A DNA stretch of 64,000 nucleotides, from NCBI GenBank assembly GCA_945889645.1, contig CAMDCA010000005.1, positions 7,728 through 71,727 on the forward strand, read 5' to 3'. The notes under the pieces were generated by a model. It saw nothing but the letters and a program-made list of their open reading frames with translations, had not been told where the DNA came from and did no database searches. Every line of letters starts with the position of its first letter. The first letter of the stretch is position 1. Below are positions 933 to 6,526 of the stretch, in pieces. The translations under genes were made by a program, and so were the position numbers. This DNA is from Rhizobium sp. Q54 (lineage in GTDB: Bacteria; Pseudomonadota; Alphaproteobacteria; UBA2966; CAIVPW01).

Positions 933-2206
933 CCACGATGGACCTACGCATTGTTTCAACGCGCGCGCGCATCGCCTGGGCGCTATTCGATTGGGCCAAT
1001 TCTGCCTACGCGACGCTGATCGTCACCTTCGTATTCTCGACGTACTTCGCCCTGGCCGTGGTGGGCGACCCGCTGCGCGGCCAGCAGCTGTGGGGCTGGG
1101 CGGCAAGCGCCAGCGGGTTGGCCGTCGCCATTCTGGCGCCCGTCCTGGGTGCGGTCACCGACGCCGGCGGTCGCCGCAAGCCGTGGCTGTTCGGATTCAC
1201 CGCTGTGGCCGCCGTCGGCACCGCGCTGCTGTGGTCGAGCGAGCCCAACCCCGCGTTCATTGTCTGGGTGATGGTCTGGTACGCCATCGGCAATCTCGGC
1301 ATCGAATTCGGCGTCGTGTTCGCCAACGCCATGTTGCCCGACCTGGTCCCGCCGTCGCGCATCGGACGCTGGTCGGGATGGGCGTGGGGACTGGGCTACG
1401 CCGGCGGCATCGTCTCGATGGTGGTGGCGTTGCTGGCGTTCGTGCAGGCCGACCGCCCGCTGTTCGGCCTCGACAAGCTGGCGTTCGAACACATCCGCGC
1501 CGTCGCACCGCTCGCCGCGTTGTGGCTGATCGTATTTACCGCGCCGCTGTTCCTGTTCACGCCGGACCGCCCGGCGACGGGTGGCAACCTGCTGCAGAAC
1601 TTCGGCGCCGGCCTGCGCCAGTTGCGCGGGACTCTTGCGCTGATGCGCGCCCACCGCAACACGGCGCGGTTCCTGATCGCCAACATGATCACCATGGACG
1701 GGCTGGTGACCGTATTTGTCGTCGGCGGCATTTTCGCAGCCGGCGCGTTCGGCCTGAGCCAGACCCAGGTGCTGATGTTCGGCATCGTCCTGAACCTCAC
1801 CGGCGGCCTGGGCGCGGCGGCGTTCGGCTGGGTCGATGATCGCGCCGGTCCCAAGCGCACGATTCTGATCGCGATGGTCGGACTGTTCGTTACCGCCGCC
1901 GGCGCGGTCGCCGCGCCGAGCGCGACGTGGTTCTGGATTTTCGGCTCGGCGCTGGGATTGTTCGTCGGCCCGGTGCAGGCCGCCGGGCGTTCGATGATGG
2001 CGCGACTCGCGCCGCCCGGTCACAGCACCGAGTTCTTCGGCCTGTTCGCCTTGTCGGGCAAGGCCACAGCATTCCTCGGACCAGCCGCGGTGGCGACGGT
2101 GACCGCCGCGACCGGAAGCCAGCGTTGGGGCCTGTCGGTGCTGTTGCTGTTCTTTGCGGTCGGCGGCGCCGTGCTGTGGACGGTACGCGAGCCGCCGCGC
2201 CGCTAG
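929..2206 (+). CDS. MFS transporter, UMF1/Atg22-like family
   Basis: Multi-pass hydrophobic protein with the LFDWANSAY N-terminal motif of the UMF1 family. ATG at 929 overlaps the upstream stop (ATGA coupling); an alternative TTG at 911. Confidence 0.65.
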   Translation: MTTMDLRIVSTRARIAWALFDWANSAYATLIVTFVFSTYFALAVVGDPLRGQQLWGWAASASGLAVAILAPVLGAVTDAGGRRKPWLFGFTAVAAVGTALLWSSEPNPAFIVWVMVWYAIGNLGIEFGVVFANAMLPDLVPPSRIGRWSGWAWGLGYAGGIVSMVVALLAFVQADRPLFGLDKLAFEHIRAVAPLAALWLIVFTAPLFLFTPDRPATGGNLLQNFGAGLRQLRGTLALMRAHRNTARFLIANMITMDGLVTVFVVGGIFAAGAFGLSQTQVLMFGIVLNLTGGLGAAAFGWVDDRAGPKRTILIAMVGLFVTAAGAVAAPSATWFWIFGSALGLFVGPVQAAGRSMMARLAPPGHSTEFFGLFALSGKATAFLGPAAVATVTAATGSQRWGLSVLLLFFAVGGAVLWTVREPPRR

Positions 2207-2424
2207 CGGTCCTCGAACATCTGCACGAACTTGCGCGGCGCGACTTCGCGCCAACGCCGGAGCAGCTCGTCGAGCGGCACTCCGAGGATCGCCAGCGTGT
2301 CGTCGTCCACTTTGAGGCGCGCGACAAGCTTGCCCCTCACTTTGACGGCGCGCGTGCCGTACGACGTCGCTTCTTCGATCCCCGGCAAATCGGCGACCGG
2401 CGCCAGCACGTCGTCGAAGGTCAT
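2203..2424 (-). CDS. Small conserved hypothetical protein (73 aa), tentatively MmcQ/YjbR-like
   Basis: Start ATG overlaps the stop of the upstream TPR-GT9 gene (ATGA). The PG.EE...G...KV.GK..A.L pattern resembles the YjbR N-terminal half. Weak call. Confidence 0.35.
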   Translation of the reverse strand: MTFDDVLAPVADLPGIEEATSYGTRAVKVRGKLVARLKVDDDTLAILGVPLDELLRRWREVAPRKFVQMFEDR

Positions 2425-3908
2425 CCGACAAAATCGAAGCGCTGGGCAACTGCAGCCCGCACTGCCTGCAGCGGCGAGGACCAATCGCCCATAGCCGGCT
2501 GCCTGTACAGCTGCGCCGTCGGATACCACGGGCTGTCGGAGCGGCCAAGCAACCAGCGCCACGTCGGATCGTAGCCAAGGACCAGCCATAGGGGCTTGCC
2601 GAGCGCGCCCGCGAGATGCGCCACCGACGTGTCCACCGAAACAACCAGGTCCATCTGCGCGGCAAGCGCCGCCGTATCGGCGAAATCGGCAAGCTGGCCG
2701 GTAACCACGCGCACGTCCGGACGCATGGTGAGCGCCTCTGCGTCCGCGGGGCGCACGTCCTTTTGCAGGCAGATGTAGTCGGCTCCGTCCGGCAGTGCCG
2801 TCGCGAACTTCGCGAAGGTCAACGAGCGCTGGTCATACTCCAATCCGCCGCTGCCGGACCACGCCACGCCGACGCGCGGGCGCACGCGGCGGCCGAGGGT
2901 CAGCTGCCAGCGCGCACTCGCCGCCGCCTCGGCAGCCAGGTACGGCACCGCGGCGGGAATGCTCTCTAGGGTCGTCTTGAACGCCAGCGGCAGGCTGAGA
3001 ATCGGGCAGTGCACGTCGAACGGCGGCAACGCCTCGCCGCGCGCGACGACGCGATCGACGCCTTTCAAGCAGCGTAGCAGCGGCGCCAACGACGGCTGCA
3101 CCTCGAGCACGACGCTGGCACCATGCTTCGCCACCAAGGGTGCGTAGCGGCAGAAGTGCAGAGTGTCGCCGAAGCCTTGCTCGGCGTGCAGCAGAATGGT
3201 CTTGCCCGCCAGCGGCGTGTCGCCGCGCCACAACGGTTGTGCAAACGTCCGCCACAACGGCGCGACCGCCGCCGTCTTCCACCGCCACTCGTACAGCGGC
3301 CAGGCCGTGGCAAAGTCGCCCGCCAGCAGGTTGGTGAACGCCTTGTTGAGATAGAAGTCGGCGCGATCAGGTTGCAGCGCGATGGCACGGTCGAACGCGG
3401 CAATCGCCTCATTGGTACGCAGCAAAGACGAAAGCGCGTTGCCGCGGCCGTAGTGGGCCTCGGCATGGTCGGGGCGCAGTGCCGCGACTCGCGTGTAGGC
3501 GTCCAACGCTTCCTGGGGTCGCTGCAGGTCGGCCAGCGCGACGCCGCGGTTGTAGTGCGCCTGCGCGTTGCCAGGATTGACGCGGAGCGACCCATCGTAG
3601 GCCGCCAGCGCGTCGTCGAGACGGCCCACCTCCAGTAGCGCGTTGCCGTAGTTCATCAGCGCGGTGGCATCCCCAGGCCTGGCGCGCACCGCCTTGCCAA
3701 GGATATCGGCGGCCTCCGGCGCCCGGCCGCGCTGGCCTTCGAGCACGCCGAGCAGATGCAGCGCATCGAAGTTGCGGGGATCGGCGCGCAGCACCTGACG
3801 ATAGGCGAGCGCCGCCTGGTCGAGCTGTCCGCGCTGGTGCAACGCCGACGCCTCTGCCAGCTCGCGCTGCTGCGGTTGCGCCGCGCCTGCGGGAGGCCGC
3901 GTCGTCAT
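2421..3908 (-). CDS. TPR-repeat protein fused to a GT9-like (heptosyltransferase-fold) glycosyltransferase domain
   Basis: The N-terminal roughly 200 aa show repeated TPR signatures (A..Y...L...P..A.A..NLG). The C-terminal half has the GT9 family layout: LLHAEQGFGDTLHF ... VSVDTSVAHLAGALGKPLWLVLGY. Confidence 0.7.
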   Translation of the reverse strand: MTTRPPAGAAQPQQRELAEASALHQRGQLDQAALAYRQVLRADPRNFDALHLLGVLEGQRGRAPEAADILGKAVRARPGDATALMNYGNALLEVGRLDDALAAYDGSLRVNPGNAQAHYNRGVALADLQRPQEALDAYTRVAALRPDHAEAHYGRGNALSSLLRTNEAIAAFDRAIALQPDRADFYLNKAFTNLLAGDFATAWPLYEWRWKTAAVAPLWRTFAQPLWRGDTPLAGKTILLHAEQGFGDTLHFCRYAPLVAKHGASVVLEVQPSLAPLLRCLKGVDRVVARGEALPPFDVHCPILSLPLAFKTTLESIPAAVPYLAAEAAASARWQLTLGRRVRPRVGVAWSGSGGLEYDQRSLTFAKFATALPDGADYICLQKDVRPADAEALTMRPDVRVVTGQLADFADTAALAAQMDLVVSVDTSVAHLAGALGKPLWLVLGYDPTWRWLLGRSDSPWYPTAQLYRQPAMGDWSSPLQAVRAAVAQRFDFVG

Positions 3909-3910
3909 CG

Positions 3911-5503
3911 CTAGTGGCGGAAGTGCCGGATGCCGGAGAACACCATGGCGAGGCCGCGCTCGTCGGCGGCCCGGATGACTTCGTCGTCGCGCATGGAGCC
4001 GCCCGGCTGCATGATCGCCGTCGCGCCCGCCTCAGCGGCGGCAATCAGTCCGTCGGCGAACGGGAAGAATGCATCGCTGGCGACCACCGAGCCGATCGTA
4101 TCGGATTTCGCCACGCCGGCCGCCTTCGCAGCATCATCGGCCTTGGCGCGGGCGATGCGCACGGAGTCGAGGCGGCTCATCTGTCCGGCGCCGATAGCGG
4201 TGGTGGCGCCGTTCTTGGCGAACACGATTGCGTTCGACTTGACGTGCTTGCACACGCGCATGCCGAACAGAAGATCGCGCAATTCGGCGTCGGTCGGCGC
4301 ACGCTTCGTCACGACCTTGAGCGCCGCGGCCTCAACCATCGCGGCGTCGCGTGTCTGCACCAGCAGTCCCCCCGCAAGGGAGCGCACCGTCAGCCCGAGC
4401 GTGCGCGCATCGGGCATGTGGCCGATGAGCAGCAGGCGGAGATTCTTCTTGCTCGCAAACGTCGCGAGGGCCGCCGCGTCGGCGTCGGGCGCGATCACCA
4501 CCTCGGTGAATATCTTGACGATCTCGGCTGCGGCGGCGCCGTCGAGCGGACGATTGGCGGCGACAATGCCGCCGAACGCGCTGACCGGGTCGCAGGCCAG
4601 CGCACGGCGATAGGCGTCCGTGAGGGTATCGCCGATGGCGACGCCGCACGGATTGGCGTGCTTGATGATCGCCACCGCCGGGCCGTCGAACTCGGCCGCC
4701 AGCTCGATGGCCGCGTCGGCGTCGCCGAGATTGTTGTAGGACAACTCCTTGCCCTGCACCTGGCGGGCGCTGGCGACGCCGGGGCGCGGATCGGCGCTGC
4801 GATACAGCGCGCCGATCTGGTGCGGGTTCTCGCCATAGCGCAACGACAGTGTGCGCTGGCCAACCATGACGATGCGCTCGGGCAGAGAATCGCCAGGGGT
4901 GCCGGGCGCCTGCTGCTGGGCGAACCAAGCGGCGATCGCGGCGTCGTAGGCCGCCGTGCGGGCGAACGCCTTGGCGGCCAGCCGGCGGCGCAGGTCGGGC
5001 GAAGTGGCGCCGGCGTTGGCGTCCATCTCGCGTGCGACCTCGGCCAAGTCCGCGGCATCGACAACGACCGTGACGTAGGCGTGATTCTTCGCGGACGAAC
5101 GAATCATCGCCGGGCCGCCGATGTCGATCTGCTCGATGCATTCGGCGAAGGGAGCGCCCGCTGCGACGGTCTGCTCGAACGGATAGAGGTTCACCACCAC
5201 CAGATCGATTGGCGCGATCCCGTGCTTCTGCATGGCGTGCACATGCTCGGGCTCATCGCGCAGGCCAAGGATGCCGCCGTGCACCTTCGGATGCAGCGTC
5301 TTCACGCGCCCGCCGAGCATTTCCGGGAAGCCGGTGAAGTCCGACACCTCGCGCACCGGGAGACCCGCGGCCGCGATCGCCTTGGCCGTCCCGCCGGTGG
5401 AGAGGACTTCGACCTTGTGCTTGGCAAGAACGCGCGCAAATTCGACCAGCCCGGTCTTGTCGGAAACCGAAACCAGCGCACGGCGGATGGGATGATTGTT
5501 CAT
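3911..5503 (-). CDS. purH: Bifunctional AICAR formyltransferase / IMP cyclohydrolase
   Basis: Start [18 protein letters not shown]; MGS-like and AICARFT domains conserved throughout. The longer 5611 start is rejected because it would overlap the riboswitch. Confidence 0.9.
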
Positions 5504-5519
5504 GACGGCCTTGTGGGAC

Positions 5520-5640
5520 AGCTTCCGGCGGAGAAGCGTTAGATCGGGATCGAAATCCCGATGCCCAGGCGAACGGCCGACACTGCCCGTGCTTCCCGAT
5601 GGTGTGTCCATCCGATGTCGCCAGTCACGCGAACACCGGC
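5520..5640 (-). promoter_or_regulatory. ZTP (pfl-motif) riboswitch in the purH 5' leader
   Basis: The reverse-strand RNA reads ...CGCGUGACUGGCGACAUCGGAUGGACACACCAUCGGGAAGCACGGG...GUCGGCCGUUCGCCUGGGCAUCGGGAUUUCGAUCCCGAU.... It carries the hallmark UGACUGGCG 5' element and the CCG..CGCCUGGGCA 3' pseudoknot element of ZTP riboswitches. A perfect 8-bp hairpin follows as a putative expression platform, about 40 nt upstream of the purH ATG. Confidence 0.6.
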
Positions 5641-5689
5641 TGTATAGCGGGGTTGGCGACGCGCCCGCAAGGGCGCGGCAGACCGCGGT

Positions 5690-6526
5690 CTACGGCCGCA
5701 GAACCAGGCCTTCTTTGGCCACGATCGAGCCCGGGCGCTTTTCCGTCACCGCCTTGGCGATGCCGTCCATGAAGTCGTCGTCGTGGTCGGGATCGTGGTG
5801 AAACACGACGAAGGTCTTGGCGCCCGCGGCCTCGCACAAGCGTACGCCTTCTTCCCACGTCGAATGACCCCAGTCGGCGCGCTTGGGGAACTCGGCCTCG
5901 GTGTACGTCGAGTCGTAAATCACCAGGTCCGCGCCTTTGATTAGCGCCAAGATGTTCTGGTCCGGCTTGCCGATGACGTGCTGCGTGTCGGTGAGATAGC
6001 AGATCGACTTGCCGTTGAATTCGATGCGATAGCCGGTGGCGCGATCCGGATGATTGAGTCGCGTCGTGCGCAACTTGACACCGGGGCGCGGCTCCAGAAC
6101 TTCACCGGCTTCGAAGTCGAGGTACGTAATGTTGGCGGTGAAGATTTCCGGCGGCACCGGGAACAGCGGCGAGAACATCATCTCGGAGATGACGTACTTC
6201 ACCGTCATATCGCGCGCCTTCAAATGGCCGGCCCAGATGCGGATCTGGCTGGTCTTGATGAACAGCGGCACGAAGAACGGCAGGCCGCAGACGTGATCGA
6301 AATGCGTGTGGGTGAGGAACAGGTCGGTATCGACCGGCCCACTCTTCAGCAGGTCGTTGCCGAGATAGCGCACCCCGGTGCCGGCGTCGAACAGCAACAT
6401 GTGCTTGCCGCAGCGGACCTCGAGCGACGACGTGTTGCCGCCATAGCGCGACGTGCGCGGCCCTGGGGTCGCGATGCTGCCGCGCACTCCCCAGAAGCGG
6501 ACATAGAAGTCCTCGCTCTCGGCCAC
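5690..6526 (-). CDS. MBL-fold metallo-hydrolase (RNase Z / PhnP-like beta-lactamase superfamily)
   Basis: HxHxDH motif (THTHFDHVCG) and a conserved C-terminal HHDPDHDD motif. Confidence 0.7.
   Translation of the reverse strand: MAESEDFYVRFWGVRGSIATPGPRTSRYGGNTSSLEVRCGKHMLLFDAGTGVRYLGNDLLKSGPVDTDLFLTHTHFDHVCGLPFFVPLFIKTSQIRIWAGHLKARDMTVKYVISEMMFSPLFPVPPEIFTANITYLDFEAGEVLEPRPGVKLRTTRLNHPDRATGYRIEFNGKSICYLTDTQHVIGKPDQNILALIKGADLVIYDSTYTEAEFPKRADWGHSTWEEGVRLCEAAGAKTFVVFHHDPDHDDDFMDGIAKAVTEKRPGSIVAKEGLVLRP

Follow-up and report, generated by a model that had tools for sequence, protein, structure and literature searches.

The purH leader in the 64,000-nt stretch of DNA analyzed here (the window) almost certainly holds a ZMP/ZTP aptamer, and the leader as a whole reads, with moderate confidence, as a translational ON switch in which the aptamer and the purH start region compete for the same RNA strands. 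The reading draws on family membership, gene context, conservation of a platform helix, and covariation of an accessory hairpin. The ZMP/ZTP riboswitch is the pfl motif, RF01750 (Weinberg et al. 2010, PMC2864571), and the class was validated by Kim et al. 2015, as reviewed in PMC7266159. Class and purH link having been established in 2010-2015, the window copy adds one ordinary member, which shows every sequence and structure feature of RF01750 that computation can test. The features referred to below are as follows.

5665..5670, minus strand: promoter-like -35 hexamer TTGCGG, at a conserved position in 7 orthologous leaders
5642..5647, minus strand: promoter-like -10 hexamer CTATAC, after a 17-nt spacer and just 5' of the P1 base
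5563..5636, minus strand: ZMP/ZTP aptamer, from RF01750 (Rfam envelope 5638..5556) and pairing across 15 relatives
5636-5627 with 5592-5583, minus strand: aptamer helix P1
5624-5623 with 5596-5595, minus strand: aptamer helix P1b
5611-5608 with 5602-5599, minus strand: aptamer helix P2
5622-5619 with 5571-5568, minus strand: pseudoknot, GGCG with CGCC, 4/4 Watson-Crick
5577-5575 with 5565-5563, minus strand: aptamer helix P3, GCC with GGC
5543..5562, minus strand: hairpin H1, AUCGGGAU-UUCG-AUCCCGAU, directly after P3, read from the sequence
5521..5537, minus strand: hairpin H2, GCUUCU-CCGCC-GGAAGC, from the minimum-energy fold and relatives
5514..5519, minus strand: 3' strand of helix S0, GUCCCA, complementary to the P3 3' strand UGGGC (5567..5563), from minimum-energy folds
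5506..5512, minus strand: Shine-Dalgarno AAGG (5512..5509) overlapping GGCCG (5510..5506), from the minimum-energy fold of 5585..5495
3911..5503, minus strand: purH coding sequence, 530 aa, start ATG 5503..5501, from PF01808, PF02142, and public gene calls
2421..3908, minus strand: TPR and glycosyltransferase-9 gene, 495 aa, from ORF coordinates and Pfam

RF01750 was the sole Rfam family matched above its gathering score in the window. The match, at 5638..5556 on the minus strand, covers model positions 1-86 of 86 and scores 52.5 bits against a gathering score of 39 (E = 1.1e-5 for both strands of the 64-kb window and 4227 families). A first-pass annotation had assigned the leader to the ZTP class on this strand and had proposed a covariance-model search with RF01750; the search was run, and class and strand were both borne out. 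The two aptamer motifs it quoted, UGACUGGCG at 5627..5619 and CCGUUCGCCUGGGCA at 5576..5562 of the minus strand, are present where it placed them. All strongly conserved consensus positions of the model are matched in the window copy, the minus-strand leader reading ...CTATACAGCCGGTGTTCGCGTGACTGGCGACATCGGATGGACACACCATCGGGAAGCACGGGCAGTGTCGGCCGTTCGCCTGGGCATCGGGATTTCGATCCCGATCTAACGCTTCTCCGCCGGAAGCTGTCCCACAAGGCCGTCATG.

The 5' subdomain is made up of P1 and P2 with the conserved GACUGGCG junction (GUGACUGGCG at 5628..5619). Eight of the 10 P1 pairs and all four P2 pairs are standard, and P2 deviates from the consensus by a compensatory pair, A-U for G-C. In the 3' subdomain, the P3 hairpin carries CCGNNCGCCUGGGC (CCGUUCGCCUGGGC at 5576..5563) and has three standard pairs, the two outer pairs of the model being mismatched. 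The pseudoknot joins GGCG of the 5' subdomain to CGCC of the P3 loop and is 100% paired and invariant in 15 relatives. In a MAFFT alignment of 15 sequences that was fitted to no structure (A1), 92% of the aptamer pairs were paired across the relatives, as opposed to 31-47% when the partners were slid. The outer pairs of P1 covary in A1; P2, P3, and the pseudoknot are invariant in it and are thus uninformative for covariation. The leader shows 0 mismatches in 212 nt between two independent metagenome assemblies, which rules out an assembly artefact, and contigs of two ENA metagenome samples encode the same PurH, with 1 and 6 differences over 7.6 kb.

A chance or relic resemblance that binds neither ZMP nor ZTP is scarcely credible. 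The E value applies to the whole window, orthologous leaders score 56-62 bits, the aptamer stands in the correct position and orientation before the signature gene purH (in its sense-strand 5' UTR, 59 nt upstream), and P1 has a conserved promoter-like pair at its base. The pair, of the form TTGNNN-N16/17-[CG]TATA, occurs at the same place in 7/7 orthologous leaders, ending just 5' of P1, and has a chance rate of about 0.003 per 76-nt stretch of the window. A strict sigma-70 consensus scan reported no promoter. A transcription start is predicted near 5636 and, given the conserved pair at the P1 base, the riboswitch probably opens its own transcript at the 5' end. Within 5690..5661 of the minus strand, between the stop codon of an MBL-fold gene (TAG, 5692..5690) and the purH promoter, there are two inverted repeats rich in GC, GACC-GC-GGUC and CGCGCCC-UUGC-GGGCGCG. 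The latter repeat overlaps the -35 hexamer, and a U-run follows neither.

The gene named earlier as the regulated one is indeed purH: the ORF at 5503..3911 encodes PurH by Pfam (PF01808 AICARFT_IMPCHas, E = 3e-121, plus an MGS domain, PF02142). Independent gene calls on public contigs also start at ATG 5503, and the PurH N-terminus from this ATG aligns with the N-termini of relatives. The gene lies 42 nt downstream of the 8-bp hairpin H1. A 566-aa ORF from ATG 5611 was rejected as an artefact: its start codon falls within the aptamer, in the AUGG of helix P2, and relatives and public calls start at the position of ATG 5503.

The TPR gene begins 2 nt after the purH stop codon and carries its glycosyltransferase-9 (heptosyltransferase-like) match at the C terminus. 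It lies directly 3' of purH in three relatives as well (L085, L086, L087), and it is probably co-transcribed with purH and would hence be under the same riboswitch. Such a gene is unusual cargo for a ZTP regulon. Another ORF of 569 aa, at 983..2692 of the minus strand, has no Pfam match at E <= 0.001; it is probably spurious, since on identical public contigs the genes called in this stretch are a 73-aa ORF and an opposite-strand MFS transporter.

The nearest named relatives of this PurH are those of Rhodospirillales-like alphaproteobacteria, at 68-69% identity. Six distinct closer relatives (L083/L084 and L085-L089) have PurH proteins 74-84% identical to it and a common synteny of response regulator, MBL-fold gene, and purH; the nearest relatives, P0001 (97%) and P0005, were left out of the comparison. 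All 6 of the 6 carry the aptamer, at 56-62 bits in RF01750, with the promoter-like pair at the P1 base and with H1, H2, and GCCC following in that order ahead of the start codon. Both the synteny and the aptamer are missing from L090, a further relative (70% identity). As a control outside the covariation analysis, we searched upstream of 80 alphaproteobacterial reference purH loci, all distant relatives of at most 69% identity, with a strict motif pattern. At least 4 bear the aptamer (two from Bradyrhizobium, one from Caulobacter, and one from Devosia), a count that is a lower bound. The distribution of the aptamer among alphaproteobacterial purH loci is clearly patchy.

A pattern scan of metagenome contigs for aptamers like those of the clade yielded 120 loci, most of which are Bradyrhizobium-like purH leaders with a short platform. 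The other loci precede glyA-like, folB-like, DJ-1/PfpI-like, and LysE-like genes, the last three assigned from N-terminal sequence only. A DJ-1/PfpI-like gene (MPEPLHIAFLLFPD...) follows the aptamer in L091, L122, L125, L127, L136, L160, and L210, a LysE/RhtB-type exporter-like gene in L092, L151, and L181, and a folB-like, dihydroneopterin-aldolase-like gene (MLTSIKITGLQTYGYHG...) in L108, L128, L129, L189, and L198.

Between the aptamer and purH, the first element is H1. The first-pass annotation had described it as a perfect 8-bp UUCG hairpin with no U-run behind it, and both statements are accurate: AUCGGGAU-UUCG-AUCCCGAU occupies 5562..5543, and the next letters are CUAACGCUUCUCC (CUAACGC). 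Its further suggestion, that the hairpin may act as the expression platform, stands in part. H1 belongs to the platform but is not the switching element, as it has no overlap with the aptamer strands and shows compensatory changes in relatives. H1 shares no nucleotide with P3 or the pseudoknot, and therefore ligand binding cannot prevent it from forming.

This bears on whether the switch could instead act on transcription, with H1 as an intrinsic terminator or with Rho terminating a leader left untranslated by a closed ribosome-binding site. We consider such control very unlikely, even though H1 is a strong, GC-rich, 8-bp hairpin with a UUCG loop placed directly after the aptamer, and many of the ZTP riboswitches studied are transcriptional (PMC2864571; 10.1101/521930; PMC7337938). 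A terminator-type platform was found neither in the window nor in the relatives, where H1 likewise lacks both P3 overlap and a U-tract; a terminator scan of 5300-5900 returned no terminator-like site, and the predicted competitor of P3 sits at the ribosome-binding site and start codon. With no U-run, no overlap with the aptamer strands, and an empty scan, H1 as an intrinsic terminator was rejected. Rho-dependent polarity often goes with translational repression, which counts for the Rho version. A contribution of Rho, however, would add to the translational mechanism and not replace it.

All 7 of the 7 orthologous purH leaders have a perfect H1 stem of 6-8 bp, which begins 0-1 nt after GGGC and differs in sequence among leaders: AUCGGGAU/AUCCCGAU, GCCGGA/UCCGGU, AUCGGGGG/CUCCUGGU, CAGGGA/UCCCUG, CAGGGGC/GCUCCUG, and ACUAAGGG/CCCUUAGU. 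In A1, 6 of 7 H1 pairs vary on both sides. Shuffling each orthologue separately gave only moderate significance for perfect H1 stems (p = 0.02-0.27), in a test that captures the long, imperfect H1 stems of glyA-type leaders poorly. By these comparisons, H1 is a covarying structural hairpin in a conserved, putatively translational platform.

Two copies of the 8-mer CAUCGGGA are present on the minus strand. The copy at 5601..5594 comprises the P2 3' strand and the junction, and that at 5563..5556 comprises the last base of P3 and the 5' arm of H1; AUCGG is also found at 5616..5612 of the same strand. As a result of this duplication, the 3' arm of H1 could pair with the aptamer over 7 bp. Among 21 H1-type leaders, the complementarity of the H1 3' arm to CCAUCGGGRA averaged 5.4 bp, as opposed to 3.75 bp for shuffled arms, with L087, L089, and L144 as exceptions and L088 barely above its own shuffles. 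The local 8-bp UUCG hairpin should out-compete such pairing, and we found no functional logic for a decoy.

Downstream of H1, the relatives have a conserved CGCUUCU-like stretch; its pairing with AGGAGC or GGAAGC, the Shine-Dalgarno sequence, makes up H2. The 3' arm of H2 is thus the Shine-Dalgarno sequence itself, 6-8 nt before the start codon, and is followed by GCCC abutting the start codon. H2 appears to be the ancestral hairpin of an anti-ribosome-binding site with the ribosome-binding site. The remaining helix, which we call S0, joins UGGGC(R), the 3' strand of P3, to a (Y)GCCC that immediately precedes the start codon. Of 92 distinct ZTP leaders whose platforms were folded on their own, most form S0. 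The Shine-Dalgarno hairpin lies inside this helix, together with H1 in the leaders of the window's clade and in glyA-like and folB-like leaders.

S0, H1, and H2 together are 80% paired in A1, compared with 38-58% when the partners are slid, and their covariation score was reached in 1 of 500 shuffles. Taken separately, S0 is 93% paired and varies on one side only, which amounts to conservation without compensatory change because its 5' strand is fixed by the aptamer; H2 is 72% paired. In 13 of the 15 leaders, the U of UGGGC has as its partner the first base of the start codon (A of AUG or G of GUG). A1 sets H1 and H2 in two or three registers, so no covariance model was derived from it, and the pairs were counted conservatively in the majority register. 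Platform folds, start-region helices, and H1 stems served as register-free tests beside these counts. A contiguous helix of 5 bp or more linking CUGGGCN to positions -12..+3 was found in 72 of 91 ZTP leaders and in 13 of 41 riboswitch-free purH starts (Fisher p = 3.5e-7, a value that is overstated since the sequences are related). When the bound state was mimicked by withholding the aptamer nucleotides from pairing, the modelled unpaired probability of positions -13..+3 rose in 15 of 18 leaders. The full-length, ligand-free minimum-energy folds differ among relatives, with GCUGUCC acquiring other partners, e.g., the P1 3' strand GGGCAGU. For the window, the z-score was only -2.0 for the local platform fold and -0.9 for the whole leader.

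The window copy itself is the most divergent of its clade. Its RF01750 score of 52.5 bits is the lowest among 16 leaders from the clade and outgroup, the others scoring 56-63.5 bits. Its P1 is weak, with one G·G mismatch and one C·A, the latter found in the window copy only and replaced by C-G at the same position in the other 14 sequences of A1. Between S0 and the ATG lie about 12-13 extra nucleotides that are absent from all relatives compared and that bring a new Shine-Dalgarno sequence, AAGG (5512..5509). The ancestral Shine-Dalgarno sequence in H2 is now 17 nt (5520..5504) from the ATG, and the S0 3' strand ends 10 nt before it. The best helix to -12..+3 is only 3 bp, and few of the leaders compared have as low an S0 score against the start region. 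In the fold of the window copy, the putatively competing helix S0 is present and displaced from the ATG.

Each of these four departures, namely, the lowest score, the C·A pair, the inserted AAGG, and the low S0 score, would also be expected of a decaying or inactive riboswitch whose purH is translated largely constitutively from an inserted ribosome-binding site outside the regulatory helix. The patchy distribution counts toward decay too, the motif being absent from most of the 80 reference loci, as do two close relatives that have lost the aptamer, L211 and L212 (PurH 77-78% identical). The former has only a 49-nt spacer from the MBL-fold gene to purH. The latter, compared with L088, lacks about 60 nt of the aptamer core, with the promoter, the first bases of P1, H1, and the platform all retained; it is a short Logan contig, and its deletion may be an assembly artefact.

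We nevertheless regard decay as unlikely. In the window copy, the highly conserved aptamer nucleotides, pseudoknot, P2, and P3 are all intact, and two samples carry the same leader without a single difference. When the local platform is folded to minimum energy, GGCCG (5510..5506), which came with the insertion, is paired to CGGCC (5579..5575) of the P3 5' strand, so that both P3 strands are captured and the new Shine-Dalgarno sequence is partly buried; this pairing is known from the window sequence only. The modelled mean unpaired probability of -13..+3 still shifts from 0.35 when folded freely to 0.65 with the aptamer locked, the largest absolute value among the leaders modelled. Insertions of a ribosome-binding site and spacer also recur in the otherwise intact leaders L156, L208, and L209.

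In these three Bradyrhizobium-like purH leaders, the ribosome-binding site and spacer are repeated after S0, e.g., CCAAGGACCUGCC followed by CAAGGACUCCGCC-AUG. The extra segments apparently arose by tandem duplication, and with them a further ribosome-binding site comes to lie beyond the regulatory helix, as it does in the window. The aptamers of L156 and L208, the two that were scanned, pass RF01750.

The translational ON switch that we favor would work as follows, where ligand binding, the direction of regulation, and the exact ligand-free fold are what we infer. Transcription would start from the dedicated promoter just upstream of P1. When ligand is absent, UGGGC (5567..5563) would pair with GUCCCA (5519..5514), and CGGCC (5579..5575) with GGCCG (5510..5506). 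These pairings would close a three-way junction around H1 and H2 and bury the GG of the Shine-Dalgarno sequence together with the spacer before the ATG. In this scheme, the competitor of the aptamer would be GUCCCA and, probably, GGCCG, their partners being the two strands of P3. A shortage of 10-formyl-THF would let ZMP/ZTP accumulate and bind the aptamer. Binding would lock the pseudoknot and P3, so that S0 and the CGGCC:GGCCG helix could not form and the start region would be freed. Ribosomes would then start on purH, and PurH would consume ZMP. The pfl/ZTP RNAs precede purH, glyA, folD, and fhs, and ligand binding is expected to raise expression (PMC2864571; PMC7266159); the ON reading agrees with this expectation that purine and formyl-THF genes are raised upon ligand accumulation. 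The earlier proposal that the organism senses folate stress would follow from the published biology of the class (PMC2864571, PMC7266159).

On this basis, purH and probably also the TPR/glycosyltransferase gene can be provisionally annotated as under ZMP/ZTP folate-stress regulation in an uncultured alphaproteobacterium. Of modest interest to riboswitch specialists is a conserved platform of the translational kind, where pairing of the P3 3' strand runs through the last bases ahead of the start codon to its first base. The comparison also supplied a covarying extra hairpin and natural variants in which the ribosome-binding site is duplicated or the aptamer deleted. Work on ZTP riboswitches appears to have dealt much less with translational platforms than with the clostridial terminator type, and the variants can therefore serve as ready-made mutants for comparison.

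A broader reading would combine a distinct alphaproteobacterial ZTP platform module, a decoy role for H1, and a staged loss of the riboswitch; taken as a whole, it strikes us as speculative and improbable, a judgement that applies to the three parts jointly. The module would be the three-way junction of P3, H1, H2, and GCCC common to purH, glyA-like, and folB-like leaders. H1, whose 3' arm is complementary to CCAUCGGGRA and whose 5' arm mimics it (identical over 8 nt in the window), would be more than a spacer, its two arms serving as decoy and anti-aptamer to adjust folding or sensitivity. The intact aptamer, displaced ribosome-binding site, deleted core, and absent aptamer would represent successive stages of loss. 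A literature search of incomplete coverage returned only class-level papers and nothing on alphaproteobacterial translational ZTP platforms or on the H1 three-way junction; this silence is weak evidence that the H1 platform is novel.

Compared with the RF01750 class at large, the window has the same P1 and P2 with GACUGGCG, linker, P3 with CCGNNCGCCUGGGC, and GGCG:CGCC pseudoknot, and the same location, on the sense strand within the 5' UTR of the gene most typically regulated by the class, purH, with ON logic expected. Its aptamer differs only in the weak P1 (C·A and G·G) and the 3-bp P3, and its platform is read as translational, not as a terminator. The transcriptional models are the pfl riboswitch of Clostridium beijerinckii (10.1101/521930, PMC10085676) and the ZTP riboswitch of Thermosinus carboxydivorans (PMC7337938). 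In these models, the platform competes for the P3 3' strand and the pseudoknot, and ligand protects that strand, as is predicted for the window. In the models, however, the competing sequence belongs to an intrinsic terminator with a U-tract, of which it makes up the 3' half, and the outcome is settled kinetically while transcription is under way, whereas the window has no terminator, a GCCC-type sequence at the start codon acts as the putative competitor, and the output would be ribosome access. The add adenine riboswitch of Vibrio vulnificus is a translational ON switch, in which ligand draws a strand complementary to the ribosome-binding region into the aptamer. Its logic is the same as that proposed here, but its aptamer class and ligand are unrelated, and it has no three-way-junction platform. 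The Bradyrhizobium-type purH leaders (L001, L005, and about 55 metagenome loci) have the aptamer, the gene, and S0 in common with the window. S0 there joins UGGGCA to UGCCCA, which overlaps the A of AUG, and a small inner hairpin holds the Shine-Dalgarno sequence. These leaders lack H1 and have a platform of 25-33 nt, whereas in the window's clade the covarying H1, common also to glyA-like and folB-like leaders, stands between P3 and the Shine-Dalgarno hairpin.
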